Shown here one piece after another: positions 827-39,342 of a stretch of 64,000 nt of DNA. The position numbers were made by a program, and so were the translations under genes. Origin of the DNA: a plasmid. Position 1 is the stretch's first letter; every line of letters starts with the position of its first letter. The notes under the pieces were generated by a model. It was given only the letters and a program-made list of their open reading frames with translations. It did not search any database and was not told where the DNA came from. Location: the sequence record NZ_CP099764.1; one strand, 5' to 3'.

Positions 827-2635
827 TTACTGTCCTGCCTGTTTCAGCTGGTCAGCAATCTGCTCTTTCACTTTCTGCGTCAGAACGCCACTGTCCGGGA
901 TTTTCTGGTTATTCATCAGGTCTTCGTAGAAGTTAGTGAAATCCAGTCTGTTGAACTGAATTTTCTGCAGCTCATCAACCGTAATCCCCCGACAGTCAGG
1001 ATGCTTCGCACTACCAAAACTGATACGCAACTGACCGTTGCGCCCCTGCTGCTGGACTATCTGCGCCAGCTTCGAATCAAACTGACAGTAGCTGCGTTTT
1101 TTCTCCAGACAGACACCCAGCACTTTCTTCGAACAGAACTCCCCGACGCTGACGGTCAGTTTGTTTGATTTTGCTTTAGCCAGGGCCTTTTCATCACTGC
1201 TGCATTTGGCCAGCCCGATATCCTGTCCCCAGCCGCTGTCCTTACAGCAGTTGCTGTATCCGGCTGCAGCCTTCTTACAAAATTTCGCCTGACCGGTGAA
1301 AGCACGGACATCCACCCCGTTCAGCGCCGCAACATCCTTACCTGCTGCGGCCAGTGCCGCCAGCTGAGAAACGGCTTCGGCAAAATCATTACTCTGCCCG
1401 CTCTGAGCCTTATCGCATTCGCCATCGAGACAGAAGACGTCTCCCCCACAGACCATCACTTTCCCGGATGTTTTTGACTCACAGGAGTACGTGGCATATT
1501 CATGCAGACAGGCACCTTCTTCGGAGTAAAAGGCACACTGGTGTGACACCAGGGTACAGGCAGGATTGTCGGTGTAGGTCTGACAGGTTCCCTTGTCTGC
1601 TGACTGCGTGACATACGTGTCCCGGTATGCCCAGCAGCTCTGGTACATGCTGTATGACTGACCGTCTTTCACCAGCGTCCTGTTCCCGCCAGCCTCCGTA
1701 CATTCTGTTTTTGTCAGTTTCCCCAGCTCCTTGCTGAACGGGCAGCTTTCAGACCAGACAACATACGGGGTGTACGAGGCTTTTTTTACCCTGACAACCA
1801 GACGCAGCTTCATTGCCGTATGACGTTTGAATTTTGTATTCCCGACCCGGACGGGGTGAGATGACGTAAAAGCCACACCGGCAGTCAGTGTTTTCTGTAC
1901 TGGTGTAAATGAGGCATCTGCTGAGTATTTGGCATTCCAGCTCAGTGGGGTTCCCAGTACTGTAATTGTCATAGGTACACTCTTCTGCAGGTAAGTACGA
2001 CTCCAGCTGTAATGCGCATCGACAATTTCACCGGTAACGGGAGAGGTAATGGAGACAACATACTGACCATTCACTTCACGTGCAGGTAGCTGACTCATTT
2101 CATACTCCAGCGTCCGGGTTTCCCATGTGGTACTCCCCTGCAGCTCCATACGGGCAGTTCGTGTGCAGTACTGCTCCACCTGTAAATCCCGCTCACAGGT
2201 GTAATTCGTGTATTCACTCCGGCTAATCTCCTGCGCACTGCACTGCTGCCCGGTGTTTCCCACAATGCTGTCAGCCCGGTTCACCACATCCCTGCCGGTC
2301 TGGATAAACGGTGCATCCGGTGAAAGAATGTCTTTCGGCTTGTTCATGAATGACTCTGTAATGGTTTTTCCGGTTTCACCGGTCGCCCATTCCGTGGTGC
2401 CGTCATTTTTCAGGCCGCCATCCCCGCCGGCAGTCACGCCACCGTAATATTTTGTCTCGTCCGGATTCGCGTTATAGCCGGGGATACTCTCCTGTGGCTT
2501 AAAGCCCTGAATACTGCTGCTTCCCTGTCCTTTGATCTGGTGAGCAAAATCAGAGCCGGCCCGGTAATCACTGTTGCTGTCAGCCTGTGCCATGCCGGCA
2601 ACCAGAGCCAGTATCAGAGGTAAAATACGTTTCAT
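827..2635 (-). CDS. traN: TraN, mating-pair stabilisation outer-membrane protein (602 aa, Cys-rich)
   Basis: 602 aa as in F TraN, signal peptide MKRILPLILALVAGMAQA, many cysteines in C-terminal half, position between trbC and trbE. Confidence 0.9.
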   Translation of the reverse strand: MKRILPLILALVAGMAQADSNSDYRAGSDFAHQIKGQGSSSIQGFKPQESIPGYNANPDETKYYGGVTAGGDGGLKNDGTTEWATGETGKTITESFMNKPKDILSPDAPFIQTGRDVVNRADSIVGNTGQQCSAQEISRSEYTNYTCERDLQVEQYCTRTARMELQGSTTWETRTLEYEMSQLPAREVNGQYVVSITSPVTGEIVDAHYSWSRTYLQKSVPMTITVLGTPLSWNAKYSADASFTPVQKTLTAGVAFTSSHPVRVGNTKFKRHTAMKLRLVVRVKKASYTPYVVWSESCPFSKELGKLTKTECTEAGGNRTLVKDGQSYSMYQSCWAYRDTYVTQSADKGTCQTYTDNPACTLVSHQCAFYSEEGACLHEYATYSCESKTSGKVMVCGGDVFCLDGECDKAQSGQSNDFAEAVSQLAALAAAGKDVAALNGVDVRAFTGQAKFCKKAAAGYSNCCKDSGWGQDIGLAKCSSDEKALAKAKSNKLTVSVGEFCSKKVLGVCLEKKRSYCQFDSKLAQIVQQQGRNGQLRISFGSAKHPDCRGITVDELQKIQFNRLDFTNFYEDLMNNQKIPDSGVLTQKVKEQIADQLKQAGQ

Positions 2636-3278: not shown

Positions 3279-4271
3279 TCACAGGAAGACACAGTTACGT
3301 TTACGCCACATCAGGTAGCCGAAGTTTTTCTTTGTGTTGGGCGGATTTTTCCCGGTTTCCCAGCGGGTCACGCTGCGCCCGAACGGGTGGCACTGCCCGC
3401 TGTCCGGATACATATTCACCATCTGGTAACGCCAGCGTTCTTTGGGCAGGATTGGGGACGGATATTCATTACAGACGGCGTTATTTTTCCCGATGGTTTC
3501 CATAATCATGCCCTGACGGTGCAGCTTGAACGCCATGCGTTCACTGACCAGCAGGGAGGACTGCAACGGACTGGACTCATTACTCACCCAGCCATTGAAC
3601 GGGTACATACTTCCCTGCGAACCGGCACACCAGAACAGAGTATCGATGGGCATGTTAAAGGCGCTGGCAATGGCATCTGCAGCACAGGCCCCCTGTGCTA
3701 TCGGATTGGCAAAAATGACGGCTTCCGGATTGAGAATGGTGGTCAGGCTGCTGTCCGTCCAGGTGGGGTCGATTTCAGAAAGATAAGCGATATCCAGGTC
3801 ACCACCTTCCAGGCAGCCCAGCGATGTGATGATGTTAAGCCAGTACGTCAGCGGGTATTTGTACCAGTGAACGTGATAGAACGCTCCGTTCACCTGCTTC
3901 TCATCTTTTTTCGCCGTTCCCTGTGCCGTTTTACCAAAAGCCGGCAGGCTGAAGCCCAGGTTCACCATACATCCCGGTGACCGGGTGACGTCCGTCAGCG
4001 CCATCGGCTCCCAGTAACCAATGGCCAGTCCGATACGCCTGAACAGCGGCGGCGGTGCCGGACAAATCTGAATGGGCATCGACGGGTTCGCCGTGTCGGG
4101 GACCTTACCCTGACTGACTTTGATACTGCCCAGCGAGAGCGGGAAAATACAGCTCCAGCAGATATCCGTGATCGGGTTTACAAAACGCCCCTCACAGGCA
4201 GAATCCGCAGACGCCGCAGGGACATGACCGGCGAGAAGGAATAACATCAGCAGCCACAGGCTTCGCTTCAT
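3279..4271 (-). CDS. traU: TraU, pilus assembly / DNA transfer protein (330 aa)
   Basis: 330 aa as in F TraU, signal peptide MKRSLWLLMLFLLAGHVPAASA, F gene order. Confidence 0.9.
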   Translation of the reverse strand: MKRSLWLLMLFLLAGHVPAASADSACEGRFVNPITDICWSCIFPLSLGSIKVSQGKVPDTANPSMPIQICPAPPPLFRRIGLAIGYWEPMALTDVTRSPGCMVNLGFSLPAFGKTAQGTAKKDEKQVNGAFYHVHWYKYPLTYWLNIITSLGCLEGGDLDIAYLSEIDPTWTDSSLTTILNPEAVIFANPIAQGACAADAIASAFNMPIDTLFWCAGSQGSMYPFNGWVSNESSPLQSSLLVSERMAFKLHRQGMIMETIGKNNAVCNEYPSPILPKERWRYQMVNMYPDSGQCHPFGRSVTRWETGKNPPNTKKNFGYLMWRKRNCVFL

Positions 4272-4900
4272 TTTCTGCCCTCCTCTGCCGGAATAAATTC
4301 CACCTTCAGGAAGCGATTGCCGGGAACGGCGCTCACCCGTGCCGGTACCTGATCGATGCCGAGGCGCTGGCAGAGCACACCGTTCTGGTCAAAGTAAACA
4401 CGGCTGTCCAGTGCTTTCTGCATCTCCGGGATACTGCCCTGCACCAGGATAATTTTGCTCTCCAGTGTGGGCGGCGTCTGGCGTTTCATCCAGGCAACCT
4501 GCGCCGGATCATCGCCATTGATGAAATACAGCGTCTGGTTAAAAGGAACATACTGCAGCGGATTCATCACTTCACCCTGGCGGGCAAACACCCGCCCTTC
4601 GTTATCCCGGATATCCGCAGCCAGTCTGACGGACGGGTCAAACAACCGGCTGCCGTATTTCTCCGTGCGTCCGATACCGGGCACGGCAGGGGGCCGCAGA
4701 CTGTTGCGGATCACCCGCTCCTTAAAGGCATCCATTTTCCGGCCCATCTCACCGGACTGCTCCAGTACCGTCAGGCGCTGCATGATCACCGTCAGCATGT
4801 CCGGCTCCTTTACCGGCCACAGATCGCCCCAGGTGCCAAGATCGGCGGCGGCCACACTCTGCCCCCATACCAGCAGGGCAATCAGCCCCCGACATCTCAT
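4268..4900 (-). CDS. traW: TraW, pilus assembly protein (about 210 aa; the listed ORF carries an N-terminal extension that overlaps trbI)
   Basis: ORF 4268..5014; an internal Met (MRCRGLIALLVWGQSVAAA signal peptide) gives 210 aa as in F TraW. Confidence 0.8.
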   Translation of the reverse strand: MRCRGLIALLVWGQSVAAADLGTWGDLWPVKEPDMLTVIMQRLTVLEQSGEMGRKMDAFKERVIRNSLRPPAVPGIGRTEKYGSRLFDPSVRLAADIRDNEGRVFARQGEVMNPLQYVPFNQTLYFINGDDPAQVAWMKRQTPPTLESKIILVQGSIPEMQKALDSRVYFDQNGVLCQRLGIDQVPARVSAVPGNRFLKVEFIPAEEGRK

Positions 4901-5283
4901 GGTTCTGCCCTCATTCGCCGGGCAATATCCTGCTGGATTTCCCGGGTGATATCCGGTGCCCCCTGTACCACAGCAGGCGACACCAGAATGACCGCGTGGT
5001 GTTTCTGCTGCCACGCCTGCAGGCTGGCTTCCAGTGCCGTGTTAAAACGCGCTGAAAGGGCTTTTGACTGTACTTCTGACAGTTGTTTCTGACTGGCGCT
5101 GTCAAAAAACGCATCTACGGTCTGTTTCATGTTGAAGGCGACAGTCACCGGTGCGTTCAGTCTGACAATGCCGTAACTGACAGCTGCGTTCAGTAACACC
5201 ATTGCCAGACAACCTGGCACCGTCCACCACCAGTGGCTGCGTCGTTCTGCCGTGACGTCGGCGGGTTTCTGCGTTGAACTCAT
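4897..5283 (-). CDS. trbI: TrbI (128 aa)
   Basis: 128 aa as in F TrbI, between traC and traW, overlapping stop/start. Confidence 0.8.
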   Translation of the reverse strand: MSSTQKPADVTAERRSHWWWTVPGCLAMVLLNAAVSYGIVRLNAPVTVAFNMKQTVDAFFDSASQKQLSEVQSKALSARFNTALEASLQAWQQKHHAVILVSPAVVQGAPDITREIQQDIARRMRAEP

Positions 5284-7907
5284 GCAACACTCCTGTATTT
5301 CTCATGTTCTTCCAGCCAGGCTTCCAGCGAAGCCATCTCCGGCCCTGACTTCTTCCACGCCAGCTGCCACACCGCCTCATGAATACTCAGCCCCTCTTTA
5401 CGTTTCTGCTGCACAAACTCAAAATCCGGGCCGTCAGAGCTGTACATGGCGCGGCTTAACGGGTCCACAAACAGGCGGTGCCAGGAGGAATGGTTTTCCA
5501 CCTGCAGCAGGAAGGAACTGAACCACTGATCTTTGGCCGCACCGAACTTACCAATCATGTCACGCTGCAGTGGCAGGAACTGGTCCGGATACAGCTGGTT
5601 GTATTTCGCGAACTCCTTCGCACTCTGTTTGAGGATAATTTTGTAGGAGGAGTTACCCCATGCCGCGCGGGCAGCACTGGAGGCCTTGTCAGAGTCAAAG
5701 TCGACGATGTTCTGTGTGATGGTGATATAGGCACCGGTATGACGGCGGGCGGTACGGTAACCTTTCTCAATAAACTCACCGACCTTGTGATTTTTGAAGT
5801 CCAGCAGACGCCATCCCTCATCAATGACGTTCAGTTTTTTGAGGTTACGCGGCGTGCGGTACATCCTGTTCTCGATGTAAATAATGAGGCTGAACATCAC
5901 CGCAACCAGCAGTGACGGACGGTCTTCCAGTCCGCCCAGCTCCAGCACCACCATTTTCGCATCATCCCGCAGGGACGGCTCATCAGAGTTAAAATACCGG
6001 CCGTAAGTGCCGCCGGCGGTATATTGATCCAGCAGGACAATCATTTCATCCAGACGGCTGCGGATGGTCGGTGACTCGACATACTGGTCGTTATCACGGG
6101 CGTTTTTCAGGAAATCCACCACATCATCGATGCGCGCCCTGTTCTTTTTAGCCAGCCAGGAGGCCCTGACCGCCTGCAGCAGCAGACCTTCATGCACTTC
6201 ATCCAGGTTACCGTTGGGGCTGGCCATCACCGACAACTGGTCACGGACACGCTCCGCTGACTGGTCAATATCGGTGATGTTCGCAAACGGGTTAAAACGC
6301 AGGGTTTCACCGTCCAGATACACCCCGCCCATGTTCTCACACAGGGACTTATATCCATCCCCCATGTCAAACACCACGGCAAAGCCCCCGGAGTCCAGCA
6401 CGCTGCGGATAAGGGGCTGTATCAGTCCGGTTTTACCGGCCCCGGAGGTGCCACAGACCGCCATGTTGTAGTTGGTGTTATTCATCCCCCGGAAGAAAAT
6501 ATCGATAAACGCCAGCTGGTTACGGTAGGTGGGTGCCAGCAGACCTGCCGGTGTCAGGGGGTTATCCGCCACTAACGGCATCAGGTTGGCCACATTAAAG
6601 CTCTCTGCGCGCTGAACCACACCGGCCTCTTTCAGCTGTTTAAACAGCCCTTTCCCGGCCATAAAGGGAAGGCAGGTCAGGAAATTACGCATGTGGTTAA
6701 AGCGCGGTGAAATCAGCTCAAAACCGTTTTTACGGAAGCTGTTCAGGATGTCCTGCTCCACTTCCAGCGCCGTTTCATTATTGTCCTTGCAGAATGCTGT
6801 GATGTTGAGGAAGTAGGACACGACAGAGGACTGACCGGAGCCCAGCCGCTGACGCAGTTCCCCCCACTCCTTCGCCTCTTTCTCCACGGACGGAAACCAT
6901 TTGGCATAGGAGGTCTTCGACTTTTTCTCCAGGTCCATGTACTTCAGGTTGGCTTCGCTGTGGGTTTTCACCTGGTCTTCCACCACCAGAGTCAGCGTCA
7001 GGATGAACGGACAGGAGATGGACAGTTCCGGGTTCAGCAGGTTGCTGTAGTTGTCGGCCATGTTCCACAGGAAGGCGATTTCCGGGTTACGGGCCAGATG
7101 GAAATTCAGGATGCGGGCCGTGCTGTTCCTGCCCTTCTCACGCAGGCCCAGCGTCAGGTAATCCGCCCGGACTTTCAGGTCAAAACTGTCCTCCACACAC
7201 TGATAATTCAGATCAGAATACGGGTCCAGCTGACGTCTTTTCGGATACAGGGAGTCCGGGTTATGGTTAATCATCTCCCCGACAATATCGATAAAGGCCT
7301 GTGCATCCACCGCCTGTGTGGTGATACTGGCCCCCTGTAACGACGCCCGGATGATTTTCACCAGGTTTTCCATTTCCAGAATATCAGCCCGGCTTTTTTT
7401 CTTCGAGGGAGAACAGTACGAGAAGAATACCCGGTAATGGCGCAGGGTCAGGGGCAGATTCATCCCCTCCGGCAGCGGAAACTGTGTCGCTGCCGCGTTC
7501 ATATAATAGGCACGGGTAATGGCGTTAAACCGTTCAGCCTGTTCACCCGACCAGGAGAACTCACGCAGCCCGTATTCAATCCTGTCACCAACCAGCTGAC
7601 TGGACATCAGATGGATGCAGAACGGCACCCCGCGCGGCAGTTTGGTGCGCAGCATGTGATCGAGGGCCTCCACAATGGACTCATTCGCCCCATTGATGGG
7701 AATGGCTTCCAGCATAAAGCCCATCGTGGTGTCATTCATGAACAGACCGGATTCCTGGTTGTAATCACGGTACGGCAGCAGACGACTGAACTGCGGGAAG
7801 CTCATTTCGCCCAGAACTTCATTGGCCTTTGCGGATTCGTCAGGCAGTTTCAGTGCTGTGACGAGGGAGTTAACCGCCTGAGTGACGGCCTCAAGTGGAT
7901 TATTCAC
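5280..7907 (-). CDS. traC: TraC, VirB4-family T4SS ATPase (875 aa)
   Basis: 875 aa identical in length to F TraC; Walker A motif GTSGAGKTG, Walker B-like DEGWRLL. Confidence 0.95.
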   Translation of the reverse strand: MNNPLEAVTQAVNSLVTALKLPDESAKANEVLGEMSFPQFSRLLPYRDYNQESGLFMNDTTMGFMLEAIPINGANESIVEALDHMLRTKLPRGVPFCIHLMSSQLVGDRIEYGLREFSWSGEQAERFNAITRAYYMNAAATQFPLPEGMNLPLTLRHYRVFFSYCSPSKKKSRADILEMENLVKIIRASLQGASITTQAVDAQAFIDIVGEMINHNPDSLYPKRRQLDPYSDLNYQCVEDSFDLKVRADYLTLGLREKGRNSTARILNFHLARNPEIAFLWNMADNYSNLLNPELSISCPFILTLTLVVEDQVKTHSEANLKYMDLEKKSKTSYAKWFPSVEKEAKEWGELRQRLGSGQSSVVSYFLNITAFCKDNNETALEVEQDILNSFRKNGFELISPRFNHMRNFLTCLPFMAGKGLFKQLKEAGVVQRAESFNVANLMPLVADNPLTPAGLLAPTYRNQLAFIDIFFRGMNNTNYNMAVCGTSGAGKTGLIQPLIRSVLDSGGFAVVFDMGDGYKSLCENMGGVYLDGETLRFNPFANITDIDQSAERVRDQLSVMASPNGNLDEVHEGLLLQAVRASWLAKKNRARIDDVVDFLKNARDNDQYVESPTIRSRLDEMIVLLDQYTAGGTYGRYFNSDEPSLRDDAKMVVLELGGLEDRPSLLVAVMFSLIIYIENRMYRTPRNLKKLNVIDEGWRLLDFKNHKVGEFIEKGYRTARRHTGAYITITQNIVDFDSDKASSAARAAWGNSSYKIILKQSAKEFAKYNQLYPDQFLPLQRDMIGKFGAAKDQWFSSFLLQVENHSSWHRLFVDPLSRAMYSSDGPDFEFVQQKRKEGLSIHEAVWQLAWKKSGPEMASLEAWLEEHEKYRSVA

Positions 7908-15259: not shown

Positions 15260-15667
15260 ATTACCTTTTTTGAACATAAAATAAAGTTAATTTCGAAACA
15301 CTAAAATTCATAATGCAAACAGGGACGCACCGCTAGCAGCGCCCCCGGCGGTATCCTATAAAAAAACACACCGCGCCGCTAGCAGCACCCCTAATATAAG
15401 ATGATGTTTTTTATGAAAATAGTCAGTACCACCCCTAAAAAGCGGTGTCGGCGCGGTGTTGTAGCTGCGCCGACACCGCTTTTTTAAATATCACAAAGAG
15501 AGCAAGAAGAACTAATTTGTCATAACTCTCTATTTATAAAGAAAAATCAGCAAAAACTTGTTTTTGCGTGGGGTGTGGTGCTTTTGGTGGTGAGAACCAC
15601 CAACCTGTTGAGCCTTTTTGTGGAGTGGGTTAAATTATTTACGGATAAAGTCACCAGAGGTGGAAAA
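15260..15667 (+). other. oriT: oriT of F type; nic between 15576 and 15577 (tttgcgtggggtgt^ggtgcttt) on the plus strand
   Basis: the exact F nic-region sequence TTTGCGTGGGGTGTGGTGCTTTTGGTGGTGAGAACCACCAACC is present; upstream repeats gc(a/g)ccgctagcagc(g/a)cccc x2 and the inverted repeat aaaaagcggtgtcggcgc...gcgccgacaccgctttttt lie in the traM-proximal part. Confidence 0.85.
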
Positions 15668-16473: not shown

Positions 16474-17295
16474 TCATGACTTCCACTTTCTGAACTGTTC
16501 GGCAATCACCCATAACGCCTTGTTGATTCTTATATCACCATCAATACCTGTAATGGCTCTTGTCCTAGTATTTTTCCCGGAGGCACTTCGCCCCGATAAT
16601 CCACCTTTTATCATATTCTCCTGAACCCGCTGCCAGGTTGTCCAGAGATCGTTCTGTTTGTCTTCCCGACGACGGGGAGTAATTATCTGTTCAGGTGTCA
16701 CTGGCGTTTTATTTTCATCTTCATACCTGACCATCAGTGCAGCTCTGCCAAATAAATGTTGCTCGTCACTGTTAAGATGAATTTCTTTCATCGCCTCCAT
16801 ATTATCAGTGACCTTATCAAAGACACCGAGCACTTCATACGCTCCCTCGATAACCTGCCCGACAATATCACCTTTATGTGGAGCGCGGATTTCGCCAAAA
16901 TTATTTCCGCACACCAGGCCATTTGTGCAGACAAAACGAAAAATTCCGGGGATCATCTGATAACTGGATGAACCATCATGTGAATTAAGCAGGATAATTT
17001 CAGGAACTTCCTGTCCGTTAATATGCCCTTCCCTGCGAAGACGTAACATATGTTTACTGTATTCGCGACGTCCCAAATCACGAACCCGACTCTGATAGGC
17101 AAAGAATGGCTGGAAACCTTCATCACGTAACTTATTGATGATATTGATTGTTGGAATATACGTATAATGTTCACTCCGGGACTCATGTTTATCACCGGAA
17201 AATACCGAAGGCACGAACTGCATTAATTCATCATCCGTTAAAGGACTTTCACGGCGGATGGAATTATACCGACCAAAACGGGAAGCTAATCGCAT
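16474..17295 (-). CDS. leading-region protein Orf273 (DUF932-like, I believe)
   Basis: 273 aa, the size of F leading-region orf273; no recognisable catalytic motif. Confidence 0.6.
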   Translation of the reverse strand: MRLASRFGRYNSIRRESPLTDDELMQFVPSVFSGDKHESRSEHYTYIPTINIINKLRDEGFQPFFAYQSRVRDLGRREYSKHMLRLRREGHINGQEVPEIILLNSHDGSSSYQMIPGIFRFVCTNGLVCGNNFGEIRAPHKGDIVGQVIEGAYEVLGVFDKVTDNMEAMKEIHLNSDEQHLFGRAALMVRYEDENKTPVTPEQIITPRRREDKQNDLWTTWQRVQENMIKGGLSGRSASGKNTRTRAITGIDGDIRINKALWVIAEQFRKWKS

Positions 17296-17696: not shown

Positions 17697-17730
17697 CTCA
17701 TCCTGCTTTCTCCTCTATCTGGTTTTCAGC

Positions 17731-18351
17731 CCCCATCATCTGTTGAGTTTCGGGAGCCGCGGTTTTGACGTTTTGCGGGGACCTGCCTTTTGTTCCCTCC
17801 GGTATTCACCATCACCTGTTTGAGAACCTTCGCCGCATGGGGCATCACTGCCACGGCCGGAAACGACTGTCCGGGGGCAGACCGCAAAAGTTTTTGCCTG
17901 CTTCTGGGCAAAAACTTTTGCGGGATGTGCATTTCACCCCTGGACTGGCGGAGACGGTTGTGGCTGTCTATGCCCCCGGCGACAGGGGCTTAAACAGGTG
18001 AATGGCACCGGACACAACAACGGGCAGGGACCCGCCGCAACGACGTGAAGCGCGGTTTGCGAAACGGCGTTGCGCCTTACATCCCGGCGGCCTTTTGCCG
18101 GGATGCCAGGAGCGCAGGCCACGGCGCGACAGAGGCGGCGCGACCGGAACGGTCGCTGCAAGCCCGGGGTTTTCACGCATCGGACCGTAGCGACAGCCCG
18201 AAACCGCGCCAGCGGGTTCGGCGGAGACTGGCAGGTGCGCCAGCAGCTGCCTGTCGGAGTCGGGCCTGACGACCGGATGCCGCCAGGCAGCCGGGAGCCG
18301 AAGGTGCGCCGGCAGACAGGACAACACTGCAGTAGTCAGAATCAGAGCAGG
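17731..18351 (-). promoter_or_regulatory. Frpo-like ssDNA promoter / ssi repeat, copy 1
   Basis: about 620-bp GC-rich element beginning ccccatcatctgttgagtttcgggagccgcggttttgacg and containing long hairpins such as ccgcaaaagtttttgcc-tgcttctg-ggcaaaaacttttgcgg (17882-17923); repeated at 24507 and 27843. Confidence 0.7.
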
Positions 18352-18621
18352 AAGAAAAAGAGAATAATCACAGGGAAGGTGATGTGATTTCTGACAAGCC
18401 ATAACCAGAGAAGGCGGGGGAAAAGAACGGGCGCCGCAGGCGCGCGTTCATCCCCGTTCCTGAAGGGAAACGACCTTCCTGAAGTCAGGTTGTTCATGCC
18501 CGTACAACATCAGCAAGGAGAAAGGGGCTACCGGCGAACCAGCAGCCCCTTTATAAAGGCGCTTCAGTAGTCAGACCAGCATCAGTCCTGAAAAGGCGGG
18601 CCTGCGCCCGCCTCCAGGTTG

Positions 18622-18780
18622 CTACTTACCGGATTCGTAAGCCATGAAAGCCGCCACCTCCCTGTGTCCGTCTCTGTAACGAATCTCGCACAGCGATTTT
18701 CGTGTCAGATAAGTGAATATCAACAGTGTGAGACACACGATCAACACACACCAGACAAGGGAACTTCGTGGTAGTTTCAT
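18622..18780 (-). CDS. hok: Hok/FlmA host-killing toxin (52 aa)
   Basis: [52 protein letters not shown] equals the Hok sequence; the 3' UTR holds the fbi/terminal stem GGGGCUGCUGGUUCGCCGGUAGCCCC. Confidence 0.95.
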
Positions 18781-18838
18781 GGCCTTCTTCTCCTTGCGCA
18801 AAGCGCGGTAAGAGGCTATCCTGATGTGGACTAGACAT
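18626..18838 (-). CDS. mok: Mok/FlmC (modulation of killing, 70 aa) overlapping hok
   Basis: 70-aa overlapping frame starting MSSPHQDS, as in R1 mok. Confidence 0.8.
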
Positions 18839-18879
18839 AGGGATGCCTCGTGGTGTACTGACCCCAAAAAGTTGGACAG

Positions 18880-19731
18880 TTAAACACGAGGCATATAGGT
18901 CTGATTCCGATATTCAATTGGAGTCAGACCTTTTAATTTCAGGCTAATTCTTCTGCTGTTGTAGTATTCAATATATTCCGTAACAGCATCCTTCAGTTCG
19001 CTTATATTACTGAACTCATCAAGATAAAAACACTCCGACTTTAAGGTTCCAAAGAAACACTCCACCACAGCATTATCCAGACAATTGCCTTTTCTGGACA
19101 TGCTTTGTTTAATACCATGTTCTTTAAGGATATTTTGATATCTTCTCATACGATACTGCCATCCCTGGTCAGAGTGCAGAACAGGATGCTCGTGAGGATT
19201 AAGCTTTTTGAATGCCTGATCGAGCATATTCTCAACCATGTTCATCACTGGTCTTTCCGAAAGGCTGTAAGAAATAACTTCGTTGTTGAAGAGATCTATT
19301 ACTGGAGACAAATACAGCTTGCGCCCATTGACTGCAAATTCAGTAACATCGGTAACCCACTTCTCGTTTGGCCGCGTAGCCTTGAAATCTCTTTGGAGAA
19401 CATTAGGGGCGGTTTGCCCTACCTCTCCTCTGTAAGAGCGGTATCGCTTGACCTTAATCGCTGCTTTAAGTGAGAGGGTTCCCATCAGGCGCTGAACAGC
19501 TTTATGGTTAATCTGTTTCCCTTCTCGATGAAGAGACAGCGTTACCCTACGGTATCCGTATCGGCCTCTATTCTCGTGATAAATCTCACTAATACGCTTT
19601 TTAACGTCCGCATACTTGTCAGGCTTGCTGAGAGCCTTTAGATGATAATAAAACGTACTGCGCGGTATCTCCGCAGCCCTGAGAAGCTCATCAAGAGGAT
19701 AAAACTGCCTTAGCTCGTTGAGTACTTTCAC
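18880..19731 (-). CDS. insK: IS150 OrfB (InsK) transposase catalytic part, 283 aa
   Basis: DDE integrase core; length. Confidence 0.9.
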
Positions 19732-20249
19732 TTTTTCGTGGGATGAGCTAAGGCTTTCAGCTTTTTTAGATACATAAGCCGCGTTTCAAGAAATCGAACT
19801 TGCCTTTCAAGATCCTCAATGCGTCGGTCTTTTGACAGCTCCAATGCTGATGCCGCTTTTTCTGGATCAACTGATATTGCAATGTTTCTTTTGGTGCCAA
19901 TCTTGAGCGCGCGTAAACCAGCTTCTCCGCGCTCTTCATAGACCTTCAGCCACCTGGCTACAGAACCACTACCAGCAAGCATAAAGTGAGCAGCAGCCTG
20001 ATTAAGGGACATGTGCTGCTCGATCACAGCTTTCACGACCTTAATACGCAACTCTGGATCAGCACTAACGCCTTTAGGTTTGGGAATTAAACCTTTTTCT
20101 CCATGTTTTTCATAGAGGGCAACCCATGTCCTGACCTGGGTTCGGGGGACACCAAAACGTGCCGAGATGATCCTGTAACCATCATCAGTTGTGAAGTAGT
20201 GATTCACGACTTCAAGGCGCTTTTCAAAAGGGTATTTTGGCTTTGACAT
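19728..20249 (-). CDS. insJ: IS150 OrfA (InsJ), 173 aa HTH protein
   Basis: length and HTH/leucine zipper typical of IS3-family orfA. Confidence 0.9.
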   Translation of the reverse strand: MSKPKYPFEKRLEVVNHYFTTDDGYRIISARFGVPRTQVRTWVALYEKHGEKGLIPKPKGVSADPELRIKVVKAVIEQHMSLNQAAAHFMLAGSGSVARWLKVYEERGEAGLRALKIGTKRNIAISVDPEKAASALELSKDRRIEDLERQVRFLETRLMYLKKLKALAHPTKK

Positions 20250-20296
20250 ATTAGGGGCTATTCCATTTCATCGTCCAACAAAATGGGTGCAGTACA

Positions 20297-20430
20297 TAAT
20301 GAAAATTAACTTACTACGGGGCTATCTTCTTTCTGCCACACAACACGGCAACAAACCACCTTCACGTCATGAGGCAGAAAGCCTCAAGCGCCGGGCACAT
20401 CATAGCCCATATACCTGCACGCTGACCACA
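20297..20430 (-). promoter_or_regulatory. hok promoter and 5' leader (tac / sok-target region) separated from mok/hok by IS150
   Basis: the minus strand reads ggcgcttgaggctttctgcctcatgacgtgaaggtggtttgttgccgtgttgtgtggcagaaagaagatagccccgtagtaagttaattttcatta, the 5' part of hok mRNA; the continuation ccacgaggcatccctATG(mok) lies on the other side of IS150. Confidence 0.75.
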
Positions 20431-20498: not shown

Positions 20499-21218
20499 TC
20501 ACGCTGCCTCCCGGAGTTTGTTCGGCACCATCCACCGCTCCATCTCACGAACAGCATGACCGACCACCCTTGCCGCCATACCAGCCTCTGCGATGACCTG
20601 CCAGAATGGCATATCCTGCCACTGCCAGCGTTCCATTCCGGCCAGTGACGGAAAACGCTCGCCCCACTGCCAGAACAGGGTTTCCAGGTCATGCTCTGCC
20701 ACCCGGTCACTCCAGCGTGCATGCCAGCTTCCGACTGTTTCCGGCGAATGGAATGCCAGTTCGATTTCAGCCTGAGCGACCAGCGCCTGGTACGCACGGG
20801 CTTTCTGCTCTGCCTCCCTCGCCTGCTGGCGGCTGTACTTCTGCATGACCAGCGCGGATTTATGGCGACTGCGTTCCCTGACACGAAACCGCACCGACGG
20901 GAACAAGCGCTCTGCTGCATCACCGGGAAGGGGAAGGAGGCAGACCTCGCCCTGTGTTTCAATCAGCACATCGATGGCATACAGCCACTGAAGACGGTTG
21001 CCGTGCAGTTCTTCTGCGGTCAGGGACGGCATGAAAAATCGCAGGTCAGACAGCGATATCCTGCGGCTTCCGTTCAGACAGCGGAAAAACGCCCCCGCAT
21101 ACGGATATTCAGCCAGCGTGTTACCCTGATGGCGGCGTTTTTCGGTCTCCGCCACCGCCCGCCATGCGGCCTGTTGCTCTGTGCTGAGAGGAACCAGTGC
21201 CTGTGAACGTGCGCTCAT
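20499..21218 (-). CDS. psiA: PsiA (239 aa)
   Basis: 239 aa directly upstream-overlapping psiB, F order. Confidence 0.85.
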
Positions 21219-21649
21219 GCCTGACCTCCTTCCGCCATCAGGATATGGATGATGTCACTGACGCTGTACCCCTGCGCGTCCAGTGACGCTGCCAGTGCCA
21301 GTGAATGGCTGACGGCTTCCGGTGCAAACCGCCGCTGCACCTGAACCACCGCAAACGGCTCACCACCGGCATTCACCAGAACCAGCACCCAGACCTGAGA
21401 GACATCGCCCGGTGAACATAACGCCAGGTGAAAACGTTCGTGGGCAGGCGTGAAACGGACCTGGACGGGGAAAAAGCCGCCAAACTCGCTGCCGTACTCG
21501 CCGTTCATCGTCCAGTTATCCGGCACATCCAGCTCCCGCATCACGGCGTGAGTCAGTTCACGGCGTTCATCACTTCCGGCAGCCCGGATATCTTCATATT
21601 CCTGTGCGTTCATGGTCTGCAGGACATTCAGGGTCAGTTCAGTTTTCAT
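21215..21649 (-). CDS. psiB: PsiB, plasmid SOS-inhibition protein (144 aa)
   Basis: [41 protein letters not shown]... matches PsiB. Confidence 0.95.
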
Positions 21650-21703
21650 CACGGTATCTCCCTTGCTGCCGCCCCGTCTCCGGCGGGGCGGTGTGGTTTT
21701 TCA

Positions 21704-24476: not shown

Positions 24477-24506
24477 GATGTGCCTCCTTCTGTTGATGTT
24501 TTCAGC

Positions 24507-25127
24507 CCCCATCATCTTTTGAGTTTCGGGAGCCGCGGTTTTGACGTTTTGCGGGGACCTGCCTTTTGTTCCCTCCGGTATTCACCATCACCTTTTTGAG
24601 AACCTTCGCCGCAAGGGGCATCACTGCCACGGACGGAAACGACTGTCCGGGGGCAGACCGCAAAAGTTTTTGCCTGCTTTTGGGCAAAAACTTTTGCGGG
24701 ATGTACATTTCACCCCTGGACTGGCGGAGACGGTTGTGGCTGTCTTTGCCCCCGGCGACAGGGGCTTAAACAGGTGAATGGCACCGGACAGAACAACGGG
24801 CAGGGACCCGCCGCAACGACGTGAAGCGCGGTTTGCGAAACGGCGTTGCCCCTTACATCCCGGCGGCCTTTTGCCGGGATGCCAGGAGCGCAGGCCACGG
24901 CGCGACAGAGGCGGCGCGACCGGAACGGTCGCTGCAAGCCCGGGGTTTTCACGCATCGGACCGTAGCGACAGCCCGAAACCGCGCCAGCGGGTTCGGCGG
25001 AGACTGGCAGGTGCGCCAGCAGCTGCCTGTCGGAGTCGGGCCTGACGACCGGATGCCGCCAGGCAGCCGGGAGCCGAAGGTGCGCCCGGCAGACAGGACA
25101 ACACTGCAGTAGTCAGAATCAGAGCAG
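24507..25127 (-). promoter_or_regulatory. Frpo-like ssDNA promoter / ssi repeat, copy 2, immediately upstream of ssb
   Basis: near-identical to copy 1 over about 620 bp. Confidence 0.75.
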
Positions 25128-25143
25128 CAGGAAAAAGAAGAAC

Positions 25144-27377: not shown

Positions 27378-27608
27378 TCAGTTAAAAGCGCGTTTCAGTT
27401 CGAGTGTGCGGAGCACCTGCCCGAAGGCCGTGTTTTTCATGGCGGGGATGTGTACACCACGCCCCCGGTGAAAACTCCGGGCAATGTGTCGCCCGAAGGC
27501 TTTCAGCACGGGGTCAATTTCCGGCGCGGGGATGTCTTCGCGTCTGAAACGGGGATGACGGCGGGGCTTTACAGCCGCTGCGGAAGGTGAAACAATACTT
27601 ACTGTCAT
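27378..27608 (-). CDS. possible small basic protein (76 aa)
   Basis: ORF sits between Frpo copy 3 and orf453; Arg/Lys-rich; no other support. Confidence 0.25.
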   Translation of the reverse strand: MTVSIVSPSAAAVKPRRHPRFRREDIPAPEIDPVLKAFGRHIARSFHRGRGVHIPAMKNTAFGQVLRTLELKRAFN

Positions 27609-27842
27609 AATTTAGCCTCTTATGACGTTAATTAATGAAACCGTAAAGACTGTTCGTGCAGTCTCTGCGGTGTGGATTAAGCAGGTCCCTGACCTGCTTT
27701 TTTCATATCTGCGTCTGACGTTCTCCGGTGTTTTCCTCCTTCTGTTCCTGCGTTCTCATTACCTGCCAGCCGGATGACTGACAGAACACATAAATGCGTA
27801 TTGCCGGAGCCTGAAATAAATCCTGATTTTTAAAGAACATCA

Positions 27843-28453
27843 CCCGTTGAGTTTCGGGAGCCGCGGTTTTGACGTTTCGCGGGAACCTGCTGCTGTATTC
27901 CCTGTGGTATGAACTTCACCCGTTTGAGAACCTTCGCCGCAAGGGGCATCACTGCCACGGCCTGACGCACCTGTCCTGGGCAGAACGCAAAATTTTTTAC
28001 CGGGTTTTGGGTAAAAAATTTTGTGGGCTGTTCATTTACCCTGGACAGTCAGTGCGGCAGGTTGTGGCTGTATCAGCCCCCGGCGACAGGGACTCATACG
28101 GGTGTGTAGCACCGGCAGGCAATGAGCAGGGACCCGCCGCAACGACGGAGAGCGCGTGCGCGAAACGGCGTTGCCCCTTACATCCCGGCGGCCTTTTGCC
28201 GGGATGTCGGGAGCGCAGGCCACGGCGCGACAGAGGCGGCGCGACCGGAACGGTCGCTGCAAGCCCGGGGTTTTCACGCATCGGACCGTAGCGACAGCCC
28301 GAAACCGCGCCAGCGGGTTCGGCGGAGACTGGCGGGTGCGCCAGCAGCTGCCTGTCGGAGTCGGGCCTGACGACCGGATGCCGCCAGGCAGCCGGGAGCC
28401 GAAGGTGCGCCCGGCAGACAGAACAACACTGCAGTAGTCAGAATCAGAGCAGC
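27843..28453 (-). promoter_or_regulatory. Frpo-like ssDNA promoter / ssi repeat, copy 3 (most diverged centrally)
   Basis: shares the 5' gttgagtttcgggagccgcggttttgacg core and the about 330-bp 3' part with copies 1 and 2. Confidence 0.7.
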
Positions 28454-28642
28454 AGATAAAGGAACAACAACATCAGGAACAGTTCCATAACATAAGAAAG
28501 AAACACTCCTGAGTCAGACACATCACAGACGGGAAGGGTAACGGGCGACGCGTCAGCGTGGCCCGCTTCCCTTCCGGCAGGCGTCAGCCTGCCAGGGGTT
28601 TTCGCGCGGACTGACAGGCGGCCTCCACCGCCTGCCCCTGTA

Positions 28643-38535: not shown

Positions 38536-39342
38536 TCAGGATAATTGTTTCAGCATCGCAACCGCATCAGACTCCGGCATCGCAAACTGCACCCGGTGCC
38601 GGGCAGCCACATCCAGCGCAAAAACCTTCGTGTAGACTTCCGTTGAACTGATGGACTTATGTCCCATCAGGCTTTGCAGAACTTTCAGCGGTATACCGGC
38701 ATACAGCATGTGCATCGCATAGGAATGGCGGAACGTATGTGGTGTGACCGGAACAGAGAACGTCACACCGTCAGCAGCAGCGGCGGCAACCGCCTCCCCA
38801 ATCCAGGTCCTGACCGTTCTGTCCGTCACTTCCCAGATCCGCGCTTTCTCTGTCCTTCCTGTGCGACGGTTACGCCGCTCCATGGGTATTTTCAGTGTTG
38901 CCACCATCGTCTGCAGCTGGCTGACGTACCAGGAGTCAGAGAGCGGAACCAGCCGGTGAGTCTGCTGACCGGCGGGCATTCTCCCCGCCGTCCTGGCAGC
39001 TTTTTCGGTCCGTTGTTTCAGGGTCGCAAGCTGCACAAACGGATACGGAGGCGTGAGCGAAAAATCCCCCCGCGTCAGCGCTAGTGCTTCATTAATACGC
39101 GCGCCGGTGTTCCACAGAGTGGCCAGCAGCATCTTGCGGCGCAGATCCGGGACATAATGAAGCAGGGCACTCACCTCGGGAGCCAGCAGATATTTCGGCA
39201 GTTCATCATGAACCATCGACATCTGGCGGAGTGCCAGAGCTGCCGGATAATCAATGGCAACAGGAAGTTGTGCAGACTGTCCGGCAGAATACACTGCCGG
39301 TACCATGGCTGCAGACTGGCTGTGTATAACGGAGCCTGACAT
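38536..39342 (-). CDS. resD: ResD (D protein) tyrosine site-specific recombinase / resolvase (268 aa)
   Basis: 268 aa; C-terminal HTFRHSYA...LMGHKSISSTEVY tyrosine-recombinase motifs; directly upstream of ccdAB as in F. Confidence 0.9.
   Translation of the reverse strand: MSGSVIHSQSAAMVPAVYSAGQSAQLPVAIDYPAALALRQMSMVHDELPKYLLAPEVSALLHYVPDLRRKMLLATLWNTGARINEALALTRGDFSLTPPYPFVQLATLKQRTEKAARTAGRMPAGQQTHRLVPLSDSWYVSQLQTMVATLKIPMERRNRRTGRTEKARIWEVTDRTVRTWIGEAVAAAAADGVTFSVPVTPHTFRHSYAMHMLYAGIPLKVLQSLMGHKSISSTEVYTKVFALDVAARHRVQFAMPESDAVAMLKQLS

Follow-up and report, generated by a model that had tools for sequence, protein, structure and literature searches.

Toxin loci of the hok family interrupted by insertion sequences (IS) have long been known from Escherichia coli K-12, in which IS150 lies in hokA and IS186 in hokC and hokE (cited in PMC3562002 and PMC9841398). 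In the form in which these two papers cite it, the work of Pedersen and Gerdes (1999) described IS-inactivated chromosomal hok loci. Homologues of hok/sok are hotspots of mobile elements in E. coli and Klebsiella pneumoniae (Durrant et al., bioRxiv 10.1101/527788), and IS150 was repeatedly found near hokC, hokE and mokB in experimental evolution (PMC5419217). Here we analysed a hok/mok/sok locus interrupted by IS150 in a stretch of 64,000 nt from a plasmid (NZ_CP099764.1), hereafter called the window. The feature is an IS-inactivated hok locus, a known kind of feature, and a derived form of an allele that is common in public plasmids. We consider it probable that the locus is disarmed, that it descends from one particular widespread allele (type E, see below) and that its insertion site is a recurrent and non-accidental one. 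Mobile elements recurrently beside hok homologues are what it has in common with the hotspots of Durrant et al. and the insertions in PMC5419217, whereas those reports gave no nucleotide-level site, orientation or motif and did not cover hok alleles of the IncF leading region. Our literature search found no paper on a series of IncF alleles, on the motif or on the orientation bias reported below, and none linking IS150 with psiA, psiB, flm or the leading region.

The closest described uninterrupted systems are hok/sok (parB) of plasmid R1 and flm of plasmid F. Saturation mutagenesis of the R1 locus showed that toxicity is lost when the hok promoter, the tac stem or the mok start codon is mutated (PMC9841398), and the target of Sok comprises nt 65–131 of the hok mRNA (PMC3562002). 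The locus in the window shares with these systems the 52-aa Hok, the overlapping mok, the numbering of the leader, the 3' fold-back and an inferred sok promoter. It differs in that 1443 bp interrupt the leader and sok, with a loss of 4 bp, so that the regulatory RNA is not contiguous. The closest described interrupted locus is hokA::IS150 of K-12, with its sokA and mokA pseudogenes. There, an identical IS150 lies between the sok/promoter side and the hok side, at the mok Shine-Dalgarno sequence, and as in the window there is no target duplication and IS-adjacent sequence has been lost. In contrast to the window, that locus is chromosomal, belongs to another hok paralogue, carries the IS in reverse and has lost 38 bp.

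Anatomy of the interrupted locus

The window carried an R1/F-type (flm-type) hok/mok/sok locus with a complete IS150 in its leader, and contained only one IS150 and one hok. The element (18854–20296, minus strand; 1443 bp), delimited by its terminal repeats, its reading frames and comparison with the K-12 copy, was identical to IS150 of E. coli K-12 MG1655 (0 mismatches, 100% identity). Its terminal inverted repeats were 31 nt long, imperfect and began with TGTACTG; the left one (IRL) was located at 20266–20296 and the right one (IRR) at 18854–18884. The genes insA (19728–20249, minus strand; HTH_28 match) and insB (18880–19731, minus strand; 350 bits with the IS3 family transposase model NF033516, and a match to Pfam rve) overlapped and were co-directional with hok. 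A slippery motif for frameshifting, A AAA AAG, was read from the sequence within gcttttttag of the plus strand (19760–19769). Length, inverted repeats and two overlapping frames with a frameshift site were thus those of the IS150 group of the IS3 family. The 3–4 bp target-site duplication typical of this group was not present in the window, but membership is not in doubt, because the loss of the duplication was secondary (the parent allele has CCA).

Downstream of the IS, the minus strand read CCACGAGGCATCCCT, followed by the mok ATG at 18838. A preliminary description, made from the letters of the window, had placed IS150 about 15 bp upstream of mok; the distance was exactly 15 nt, and this spacer (18839–18853, minus strand) held the mok Shine-Dalgarno sequence GAGG. 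The mok open reading frame (ORF; 18626–18838, minus strand; 70 aa; Pfam PF17496, 140 bits) was intact and overlapped the frame of hok, the toxin gene (18622–18780, minus strand; 52 aa; Pfam PF01848, 76.5 bits; NCBIfam NF007279, 126 bits), which was also intact. The 3' untranslated region (UTR) of hok (18515–18621, minus strand) contained the fold-back (fbi) region and a terminator hairpin, the hairpin and T-run being read from the sequence. Positions 18534–18855, which span mok, hok and the 3' UTR, corresponded to +99 to +420 of the uninterrupted locus at 100% identity, in agreement with the intact hok and fbi 3' end reported earlier for the left side of the IS.

On the right side, the leader fragment +1 to +96 of the hok mRNA (20297–20392, minus strand) was 100% identical to the intact leader. 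It ended in ...GTAGTAAGTTAATTTTCATTA and included tac, ucb and the 5' portion of the Sok target. Alignment to the intact leader placed +1 of the hok mRNA at 20392, the mok ATG at +116 and the hok ATG at +174, the same numbering as in PMC9841398. A consensus scan detected a hok promoter-like site upstream of this fragment (TGGTCA, 18 nt, TATGAT; 20399–20428, minus strand), so both the promoter and the 5' leader expected to the right of IS150 were present. The separation of the toxin genes from their promoter was likewise confirmed, as the promoter and the first 96 nt, including tac and ucb, were cut from mok and hok. The flanks had also been proposed to reconstitute a continuous hok mRNA. Both halves were indeed found, but they did not rejoin seamlessly: +1 to +96 and +101 onwards were 1443 bp apart, +97 to +100 were absent, and no contiguous hok mRNA is encoded.

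Since the Sok target is nt 65–131 of the hok mRNA, IS150 lies inside the sok gene, where the preliminary description had put it. Judged by this published target, the antisense sok gene is incomplete. Its orphaned 3' part, the complement of +65 to +96 with the 3' hairpin arm and U-tail region, would be located at 20297–20328 (plus strand; from the target given in PMC3562002). The inferred sok promoter and the retained first 25–30 nt of sok, which continue into the IRR, were placed at 18794–18853 (plus strand). On the basis of what is established for R1 hok/sok and of the target coordinates in PMC3562002, we take the promoter hexamers, read from the sequence, to be TTGCGC (18794–18799) and TATCCT (18817–18822, plus strand), separated by 17 nt.

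The Rfam model RF01794, named "sok antitoxin", gave a partial match of 59.2 bits in the window (20220–20393, minus strand) versus 88.9 bits in an intact locus (1825–2001, minus strand). The model aligned to the hok mRNA strand, from leader +1 to the hok ATG, and not to the Sok-encoding strand. Its match therefore marks the hok leader rather than the sok gene, and it was dropped as a means of placing Sok. Two features of public annotations concern the same genes. In several of the compared plasmids, RefSeq Hok was a 126-nt coding sequence (41 codons, WP_001372321.1) despite an intact 52-aa frame. Sok is an RNA; some records name a 62-aa ORF opposite the leader "protein sok", which looks like an annotation artefact.

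Junctions and origin of the window allele

Uninterrupted loci read ...TTCATTA-ACCA-CCACGAGG, and the window read ...TTCATTA-IS150-CCACGAGG. The leader in the window was thus short of 4 bp, ACCA (+97 to +100), and nothing was duplicated at the IS ends. The flanks were collinear with intact loci, the joined flanks of the window measuring 704 bp versus 708 bp in uninterrupted homologues. Comparison with uninterrupted loci, which had been recommended for finding the exact target site and a 3-bp duplication, defined the site and revealed that the duplication was absent.

The plasmid pFAM21845_1 (NZ_CP017221.1) carried IS150 at the same site with a CCA duplication. Positions 1–39775 of the window were 99.945% identical to it over 39.8 kb (15 mismatches), and the only gap was 7 bp, TGGTGGT on the plus strand (ACCACCA in mRNA sense), at the IRL junction, lost in the window. 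With the type E allele, represented by pFAM21845_1 and pSH696_117 (NC_019117.1), the window shared the backbone (that of pFAM21845_1), the IS150, the IS-CCACGAGG junction and the orientation. The alleles differed in that type E keeps the CCA duplication (...AACCACCA-IS-CCACGAGG), whereas the window has no ACCACCA beside the IRL.

On these comparisons, the simplest history of the window allele would be a type E insertion followed by an adjacent 7-bp deletion. The original event would have been a normal IS150 insertion with a CCA duplication at +101 to +103, just 5' of the mok Shine-Dalgarno sequence. Later, in the lineage of the window, the 7 bp ACCACCA beside the left IS end would have been lost, leaving no duplication and a net deficit of 4 bp. 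Adjacent deletions and recombination between IS copies are both documented causes of IS150 copies without duplications (PMC11708052).

Allele series and frequency in public plasmids

Five IS150 insertion sites, distinguished by their duplications, were found in the hok leader of IncF plasmids, always with the transposase genes co-directional with hok. Type A (CGCT, +3 to +6) was present in sequence type 131 (ST131)-type plasmids, for example NZ_LR130556, and accounted for 107 PLSDB records, while type B (TTC, +90 to +92; NZ_CP027537) accounted for 185. Types C (TTA, +94 to +96; CP088650 and CP055672) and D (TAA, +95 to +97; Salmonella p28945-1) were rare, with approximately 10 records combined. 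Type E (CCA, +101 to +103; pSH696_117 and pFAM21845_1) was found in 141 records. These counts were obtained with exact 40-nt junction queries against PLSDB, and several junctions were read by eye from retrieved sequences.

The IS-CCACGAGG junction, common to type E and the window, occurred in 146 PLSDB records. As 141 of these are type E, approximately five records should have the window form, which was verified in pYLMB31a. The uninterrupted homologue was present in at least 3980 PLSDB records and interrupted loci numbered approximately 450 (107 + 185 + 146, and about 10 of types C and D), in the order of a tenth of the IncF-type hok loci in PLSDB. A group of 445 plasmids that covered most of a 2.4-kb query was rejected as carrying the same allele, since the IS of the top matches was located approximately 95 bp away, at +3 to +6. 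The locus had been described earlier as if it were one simple insertion. It is instead a derived form of a widespread allele, at a target that is hit recurrently and with an orientation bias; both the IncF allele series and the recurrence across hok leaders were observed directly.

Insertions of IS150-type elements in other hok loci

The type A insertion was also located directly 5' of TGAGGC, in this case the foot of the tac hairpin TGAGGCTTTCTGCCTCA; tac and the mok Shine-Dalgarno region are alike, presumably because both pair with ucb. What the sites shared was a GAGGC...GCCTC hairpin with a 3–4 bp duplication at its 5' foot. The same arrangement was found in diverged loci. In a Klebsiella IncF plasmid, ISKpn8 (1443 bp, 94.7% identical to IS150) was inserted in a diverged hok leader with the duplication CCCA directly 5' of CGAGGC. 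An IS150-like element was also present in an unrelated hok locus of IncHI2 plasmids, where the duplication was AACC, again directly 5' of CGAGGC. Approximately 949 PLSDB records fell in the 80–90% identity class of the IRL-junction query, and the rows sampled from this class were ISKpn8 and IncHI2-type loci.

When species-representative genomes were scanned for IS150-type right ends, at least 120 loci were obtained, with 15 Enterobacterales loci among the matches listed, to which the following counts refer. Fourteen of these 15 were hok-family loci, and in 12 the tip of the IRR was 3–5 nt from (Y)GAGGC. GAGGC at that distance was seen in 1 of approximately 105 non-enterobacterial loci. The order downstream of (Y)GAGGC was the same in all 12 loci: mok ATG, dcb sequence TAGCCTCTTAC, then the Shine-Dalgarno sequence and ATG of hok. 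Among them were the chromosomes of Shigella flexneri and Enterobacter hormaechei, two paralogues of [Erwinia] mediterraneensis, Kluyvera and E. coli hokA. Two further hok loci, K-type hokA and Buttiauxella, carried deletions.

In hokA of K-12, the same IS150 was inserted in the opposite orientation, and a 38-bp deletion removed the mokA Shine-Dalgarno sequence and start codon; a co-directional hokA::IS150 without the 38-bp deletion exists as well. Among 5426 complete E. coli genomes, the hokA leader was uninterrupted in 2826 and split at the K-12 position in approximately 2600 (8039 places in the 5426 genomes). The K-12-type hokA split is thus present in roughly half of sequenced E. coli. In evolving E. 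coli B, a de novo insertion of IS150 reported at 16,972 in hokC mapped between ACC and CGAGGC (PMC5419217; REL606 numbering assumed). The IS150 coordinates given in the same paper for trg/mokB (1,272,468) and insA-7/hokE (582,237) were unusable, as they are not in hok loci of NC_012967.1; these entries of its Table 3 land in REL606 chaB and cusA, so that the table is either shifted or based on another reference. Overall, in hok-family leaders, the duplication immediately preceded (Y)GAGGC on the 5' side in at least 11 independent events, and the IRR faced the hairpin in 11 of the 12 events scored as independent.

Several further observations were made during the right-end scan. The 23-nt right end of IS150 occurred unchanged in many assemblies of Streptococcus, Alistipes, Fusobacterium, Rikenellaceae and Clostridia, often at contig ends, which indicates that elements with an identical terminus have spread far beyond the Enterobacterales. 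These right ends were not beside GAGGC. A contig of Moraxella osloensis and one of Methylobacillus sp. (454 bp) contained E. coli hokA::IS150 junctions, the latter the exact K-12 junction; both are probably E. coli contamination. In the chromosomal hok leader of Enterobacter hormaechei, a 1443-bp IS150-like element (approximately 4184–5626 of the retrieved locus) was preceded by ...ACCTGTA and followed by TTCCGAGGC, with no evident duplication. This insertion may be another derived allele like that of the window.

Transcription and RNA folding across the IS ends

The insertion had been considered as a possible IS-driven promoter fusion. This was not supported, as the promoter scan found no promoter-like site facing outward near the IRR; the nearest one on the minus strand was 1.3 kb upstream, in insA. 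The terminator scan found no sense-strand terminator between insB and mok.

The IS150 decamer AUGCCUCGUG at the end of insB (18885–18894, minus strand) formed a complementary inverted repeat with the IS-to-mok spacer, being perfectly complementary to CACGAGGCAU (18843–18852), which contains the mok Shine-Dalgarno sequence. In the predicted fold of a read-through RNA, AUGCCUCGUG and CACGAGGCAU formed a 10-bp stem (76-nt segment, −23.7 kcal/mol, z = −3.5). In transcripts leaving the IS, the mok Shine-Dalgarno sequence would thus be sequestered by an IS-encoded decamer. On the plus strand, the terminator scan detected a terminator-like hairpin in IS150 with a 15-bp stem and a U-run (18897–18941; z = −6.8 for the fold of the chimeric RNA). 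A transcript from the sok promoter would comprise approximately 25 nt of Sok, cross the IRR and end at this hairpin as a chimeric antisense RNA.

Extended similarity between the hok leader and the ends of IS150, by which the leader might act as a pseudo-end, was rejected. Only the decamer CACGAGGCAT stood out, with 4 of 500 shuffles matching or beating it before correction for four comparisons, and an 8-nt match of the IRL to the hok leader was not significant against shuffles. The decamer match was not relied on as a recognition signal either, since it shrinks to 6–8 nt in the Klebsiella and IncHI2 loci.

Plasmid context

The locus was flanked on the right by psiA (20499–21218) and psiB (21215–21652), and traJ/FinP was located at approximately 14.7 kb of the window. 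Positions 39001–64000 were 100% identical to pFAM21845_1, a ColV-like IncFIA/FIB/FIC plasmid in which the gene order is tra, DUF932, hok, IS150, psiA/psiB, parB-like, ssb, anti-restriction, sopAB, repE and ccdAB. This gene order indicates that the locus is in the leading region of a ColV-like IncF plasmid. Of the 15 substitutions relative to pFAM21845_1, 12 fell within 174 bp (15346–15519) between traM and a transglycosylase gene. The cluster has the appearance of a short patch of recombination within a backbone that is identical elsewhere, and is presumably close to oriT.

A GC-rich segment of approximately 640 bp was present in three copies with 88–98% mutual identity (17722–18364, 24498–25142 and 27838–28469), the first immediately downstream of hok, the second upstream of ssb and the third farther along. 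These copies are similar to the single-strand promoter (Frpo/ssi-like) regions that recur in F leading regions. A match to Rfam AS-pc01 (27603–27702) adjoined the third copy.

Discussion

The anatomy of the locus suggests how both partners of the toxin-antitoxin system would be silenced by one insertion. IS150 puts the hok promoter, tac and ucb 1.4 kb from mok and hok, and splits sok into its promoter and 5' recognition segment on one side and its hairpin and terminator on the other. The locus would yield no normal hok mRNA and no normal Sok RNA. Neither partner should be functional, because the promoter, tac and ucb are 1.4 kb from mok and Sok is left without its hairpin and terminator. From the published genetics of hok, it is most likely that post-segregational killing by this locus has been lost. 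The plasmid could tolerate this loss because it retains ccdAB and sopAB, both of which are present in the near-identical pFAM21845_1.

Some observations weigh against this account of a disarmed, type E-derived locus. Both hok and mok are intact, the same Hok accession is annotated in interrupted and intact plasmids, and some residual function of the intact genes is possible. The presumed sok hexamers were below the threshold of the promoter scan, so that the sok promoter and the ends of sok were not detected by it. With no sense-strand terminator detected, transcripts from the hok promoter or an IS150 promoter could run through the IS into mok. Finally, the window junctions correspond exactly to two known ones, the upstream TTCATTA-IS of type C and the downstream IS-CCACGAGG of type E.

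The last of these points would be explained if the window allele were the product of homologous recombination within IS150, with a type C and a type E allele as partners, instead of a 7-bp deletion. Recombination between IS copies is known to yield missing duplications (PMC11708052), and pYLMB31a, the second plasmid with the window allele, has a different psiA-side flank, so that the allele is found on more than one backbone. However, the psiA-side flank of the window is that of type E from the first base past the junction, whereas the sequenced type C plasmid differs from +209, and the entire 39.8-kb backbone is that of the type E plasmid. Recombination would thus require a very short conversion tract. 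All alleles share the same first 450 nt on the hok side, and the two plasmids with the window allele differ on the psiA side; these flank polymorphisms favour type E ancestry, and we regard recombination as possible but doubtful. The chance that the split is an artefact of assembly or a chimeric join, one of the circumstances in which the preliminary description would have had to be withdrawn, is negligible. The missing target duplication is the sole point in its favour, and it is excluded by the exact hok-side junction in 146 PLSDB records and by pYLMB31a, an independent plasmid with both window junctions together and an identical IS. Alternatively, read-through or a hybrid promoter at the right end could keep mok and hok active, perhaps under the control of a chimeric Sok-like RNA. 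IS150 is co-directional with hok without a sense-strand terminator between insB and mok; mok, hok and the mok Shine-Dalgarno sequence are intact; and the inferred sok promoter and first 25–30 nt of Sok are kept beside mok. Nevertheless, there is no promoter-like site directed outward near the IRR, and a 10-bp stem is predicted between the mok Shine-Dalgarno sequence and the IS150 decamer AUGCCUCGUG. Furthermore, tac, which is needed for activation, is 1.4 kb away, and mutating tac is enough to abolish toxicity (PMC9841398). Hundreds of plasmids carry alleles of the series, although expression of Hok in the absence of a proper Sok would be lethal. We therefore consider IS-driven expression of the toxin very unlikely, and a disarmed locus remains the preferred reading.

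How the insertions came to be so precisely placed is a separate matter. IS150 might have no site preference, if only those insertions survive that silence hok and sok together. Hok/sok loci were reported as mobile-element hotspots and read as cases of adaptive disruption (bioRxiv 10.1101/527788), hok and ldr disruptions recur in evolving populations (PMC5419217), and hokC and hokE of K-12 also carry a different element, IS186 (PMC3562002). Insertions in the promoter, in mok or in the hok coding region would, however, inactivate the locus equally well, whereas the observed events cluster within approximately 14 nt or at the foot of a second YGAGGC hairpin. The duplication abuts (Y)GAGGC even in diverged loci, and one orientation was found in 11 of the 12 scored events. 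As selection for hok inactivation alone would not predict such precision of position and orientation, a target preference appears to be the better explanation of both, and selection without any preference seems unlikely to us. IS1397 and ISKpn1 are members of the IS150 subgroup. For these IS3-family elements, a transposase-determined specificity for small palindromes was described, and they resemble the present case in their small hairpin target and in a 3–4 bp duplication fixed relative to the stem (PMC1525189). They differ in that they target repetitive extragenic palindromes/palindromic units (REP/PU), while the proposed target of IS150 is the foot of the GAGGC...GCCTC hairpin of hok leaders.

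IS150-group elements insert repeatedly, and mostly with the IRR towards mok, at the 5' foot of GAGGC...GCCTC hairpins in hok leaders. We tentatively propose, at somewhat less than even confidence, that their transposases recognise this hairpin foot (the mok Shine-Dalgarno/dcb stem, or tac) as an oriented target, and that the elements are homing elements for type I toxin loci.

Plasmid surveys count hok/sok among the addiction systems of epidemic IncF plasmids. In the description of pEC958, for example, hok/sok is one of four toxin-antitoxin systems, and no IS is mentioned (PMC4398462). Judging from the exact junctions, IS150 interrupts the hok leader in more than 430 PLSDB records, in which the locus very probably does not function, and inventories of addiction systems based on gene presence would thus overstate what these plasmids carry.

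What makes the locus interesting is chiefly that IS150-type elements target hok leaders recurrently and with a preferred orientation. In the long-term evolution experiment with E. coli, IS150 is the most active IS. If the target is truly recognised, IS150 would gain a defined preferred target, and the frequent IS in chromosomal hok loci would be explained. An IS150-type insertion would then decapitate hok and sok at once, its IRR supplying both the decamer that masks the mok Shine-Dalgarno sequence and the terminator that caps the sok promoter. Such an insertion would do the host no harm, making the toxin locus a safe harbour for these elements in plasmids and chromosomes across the Enterobacterales.

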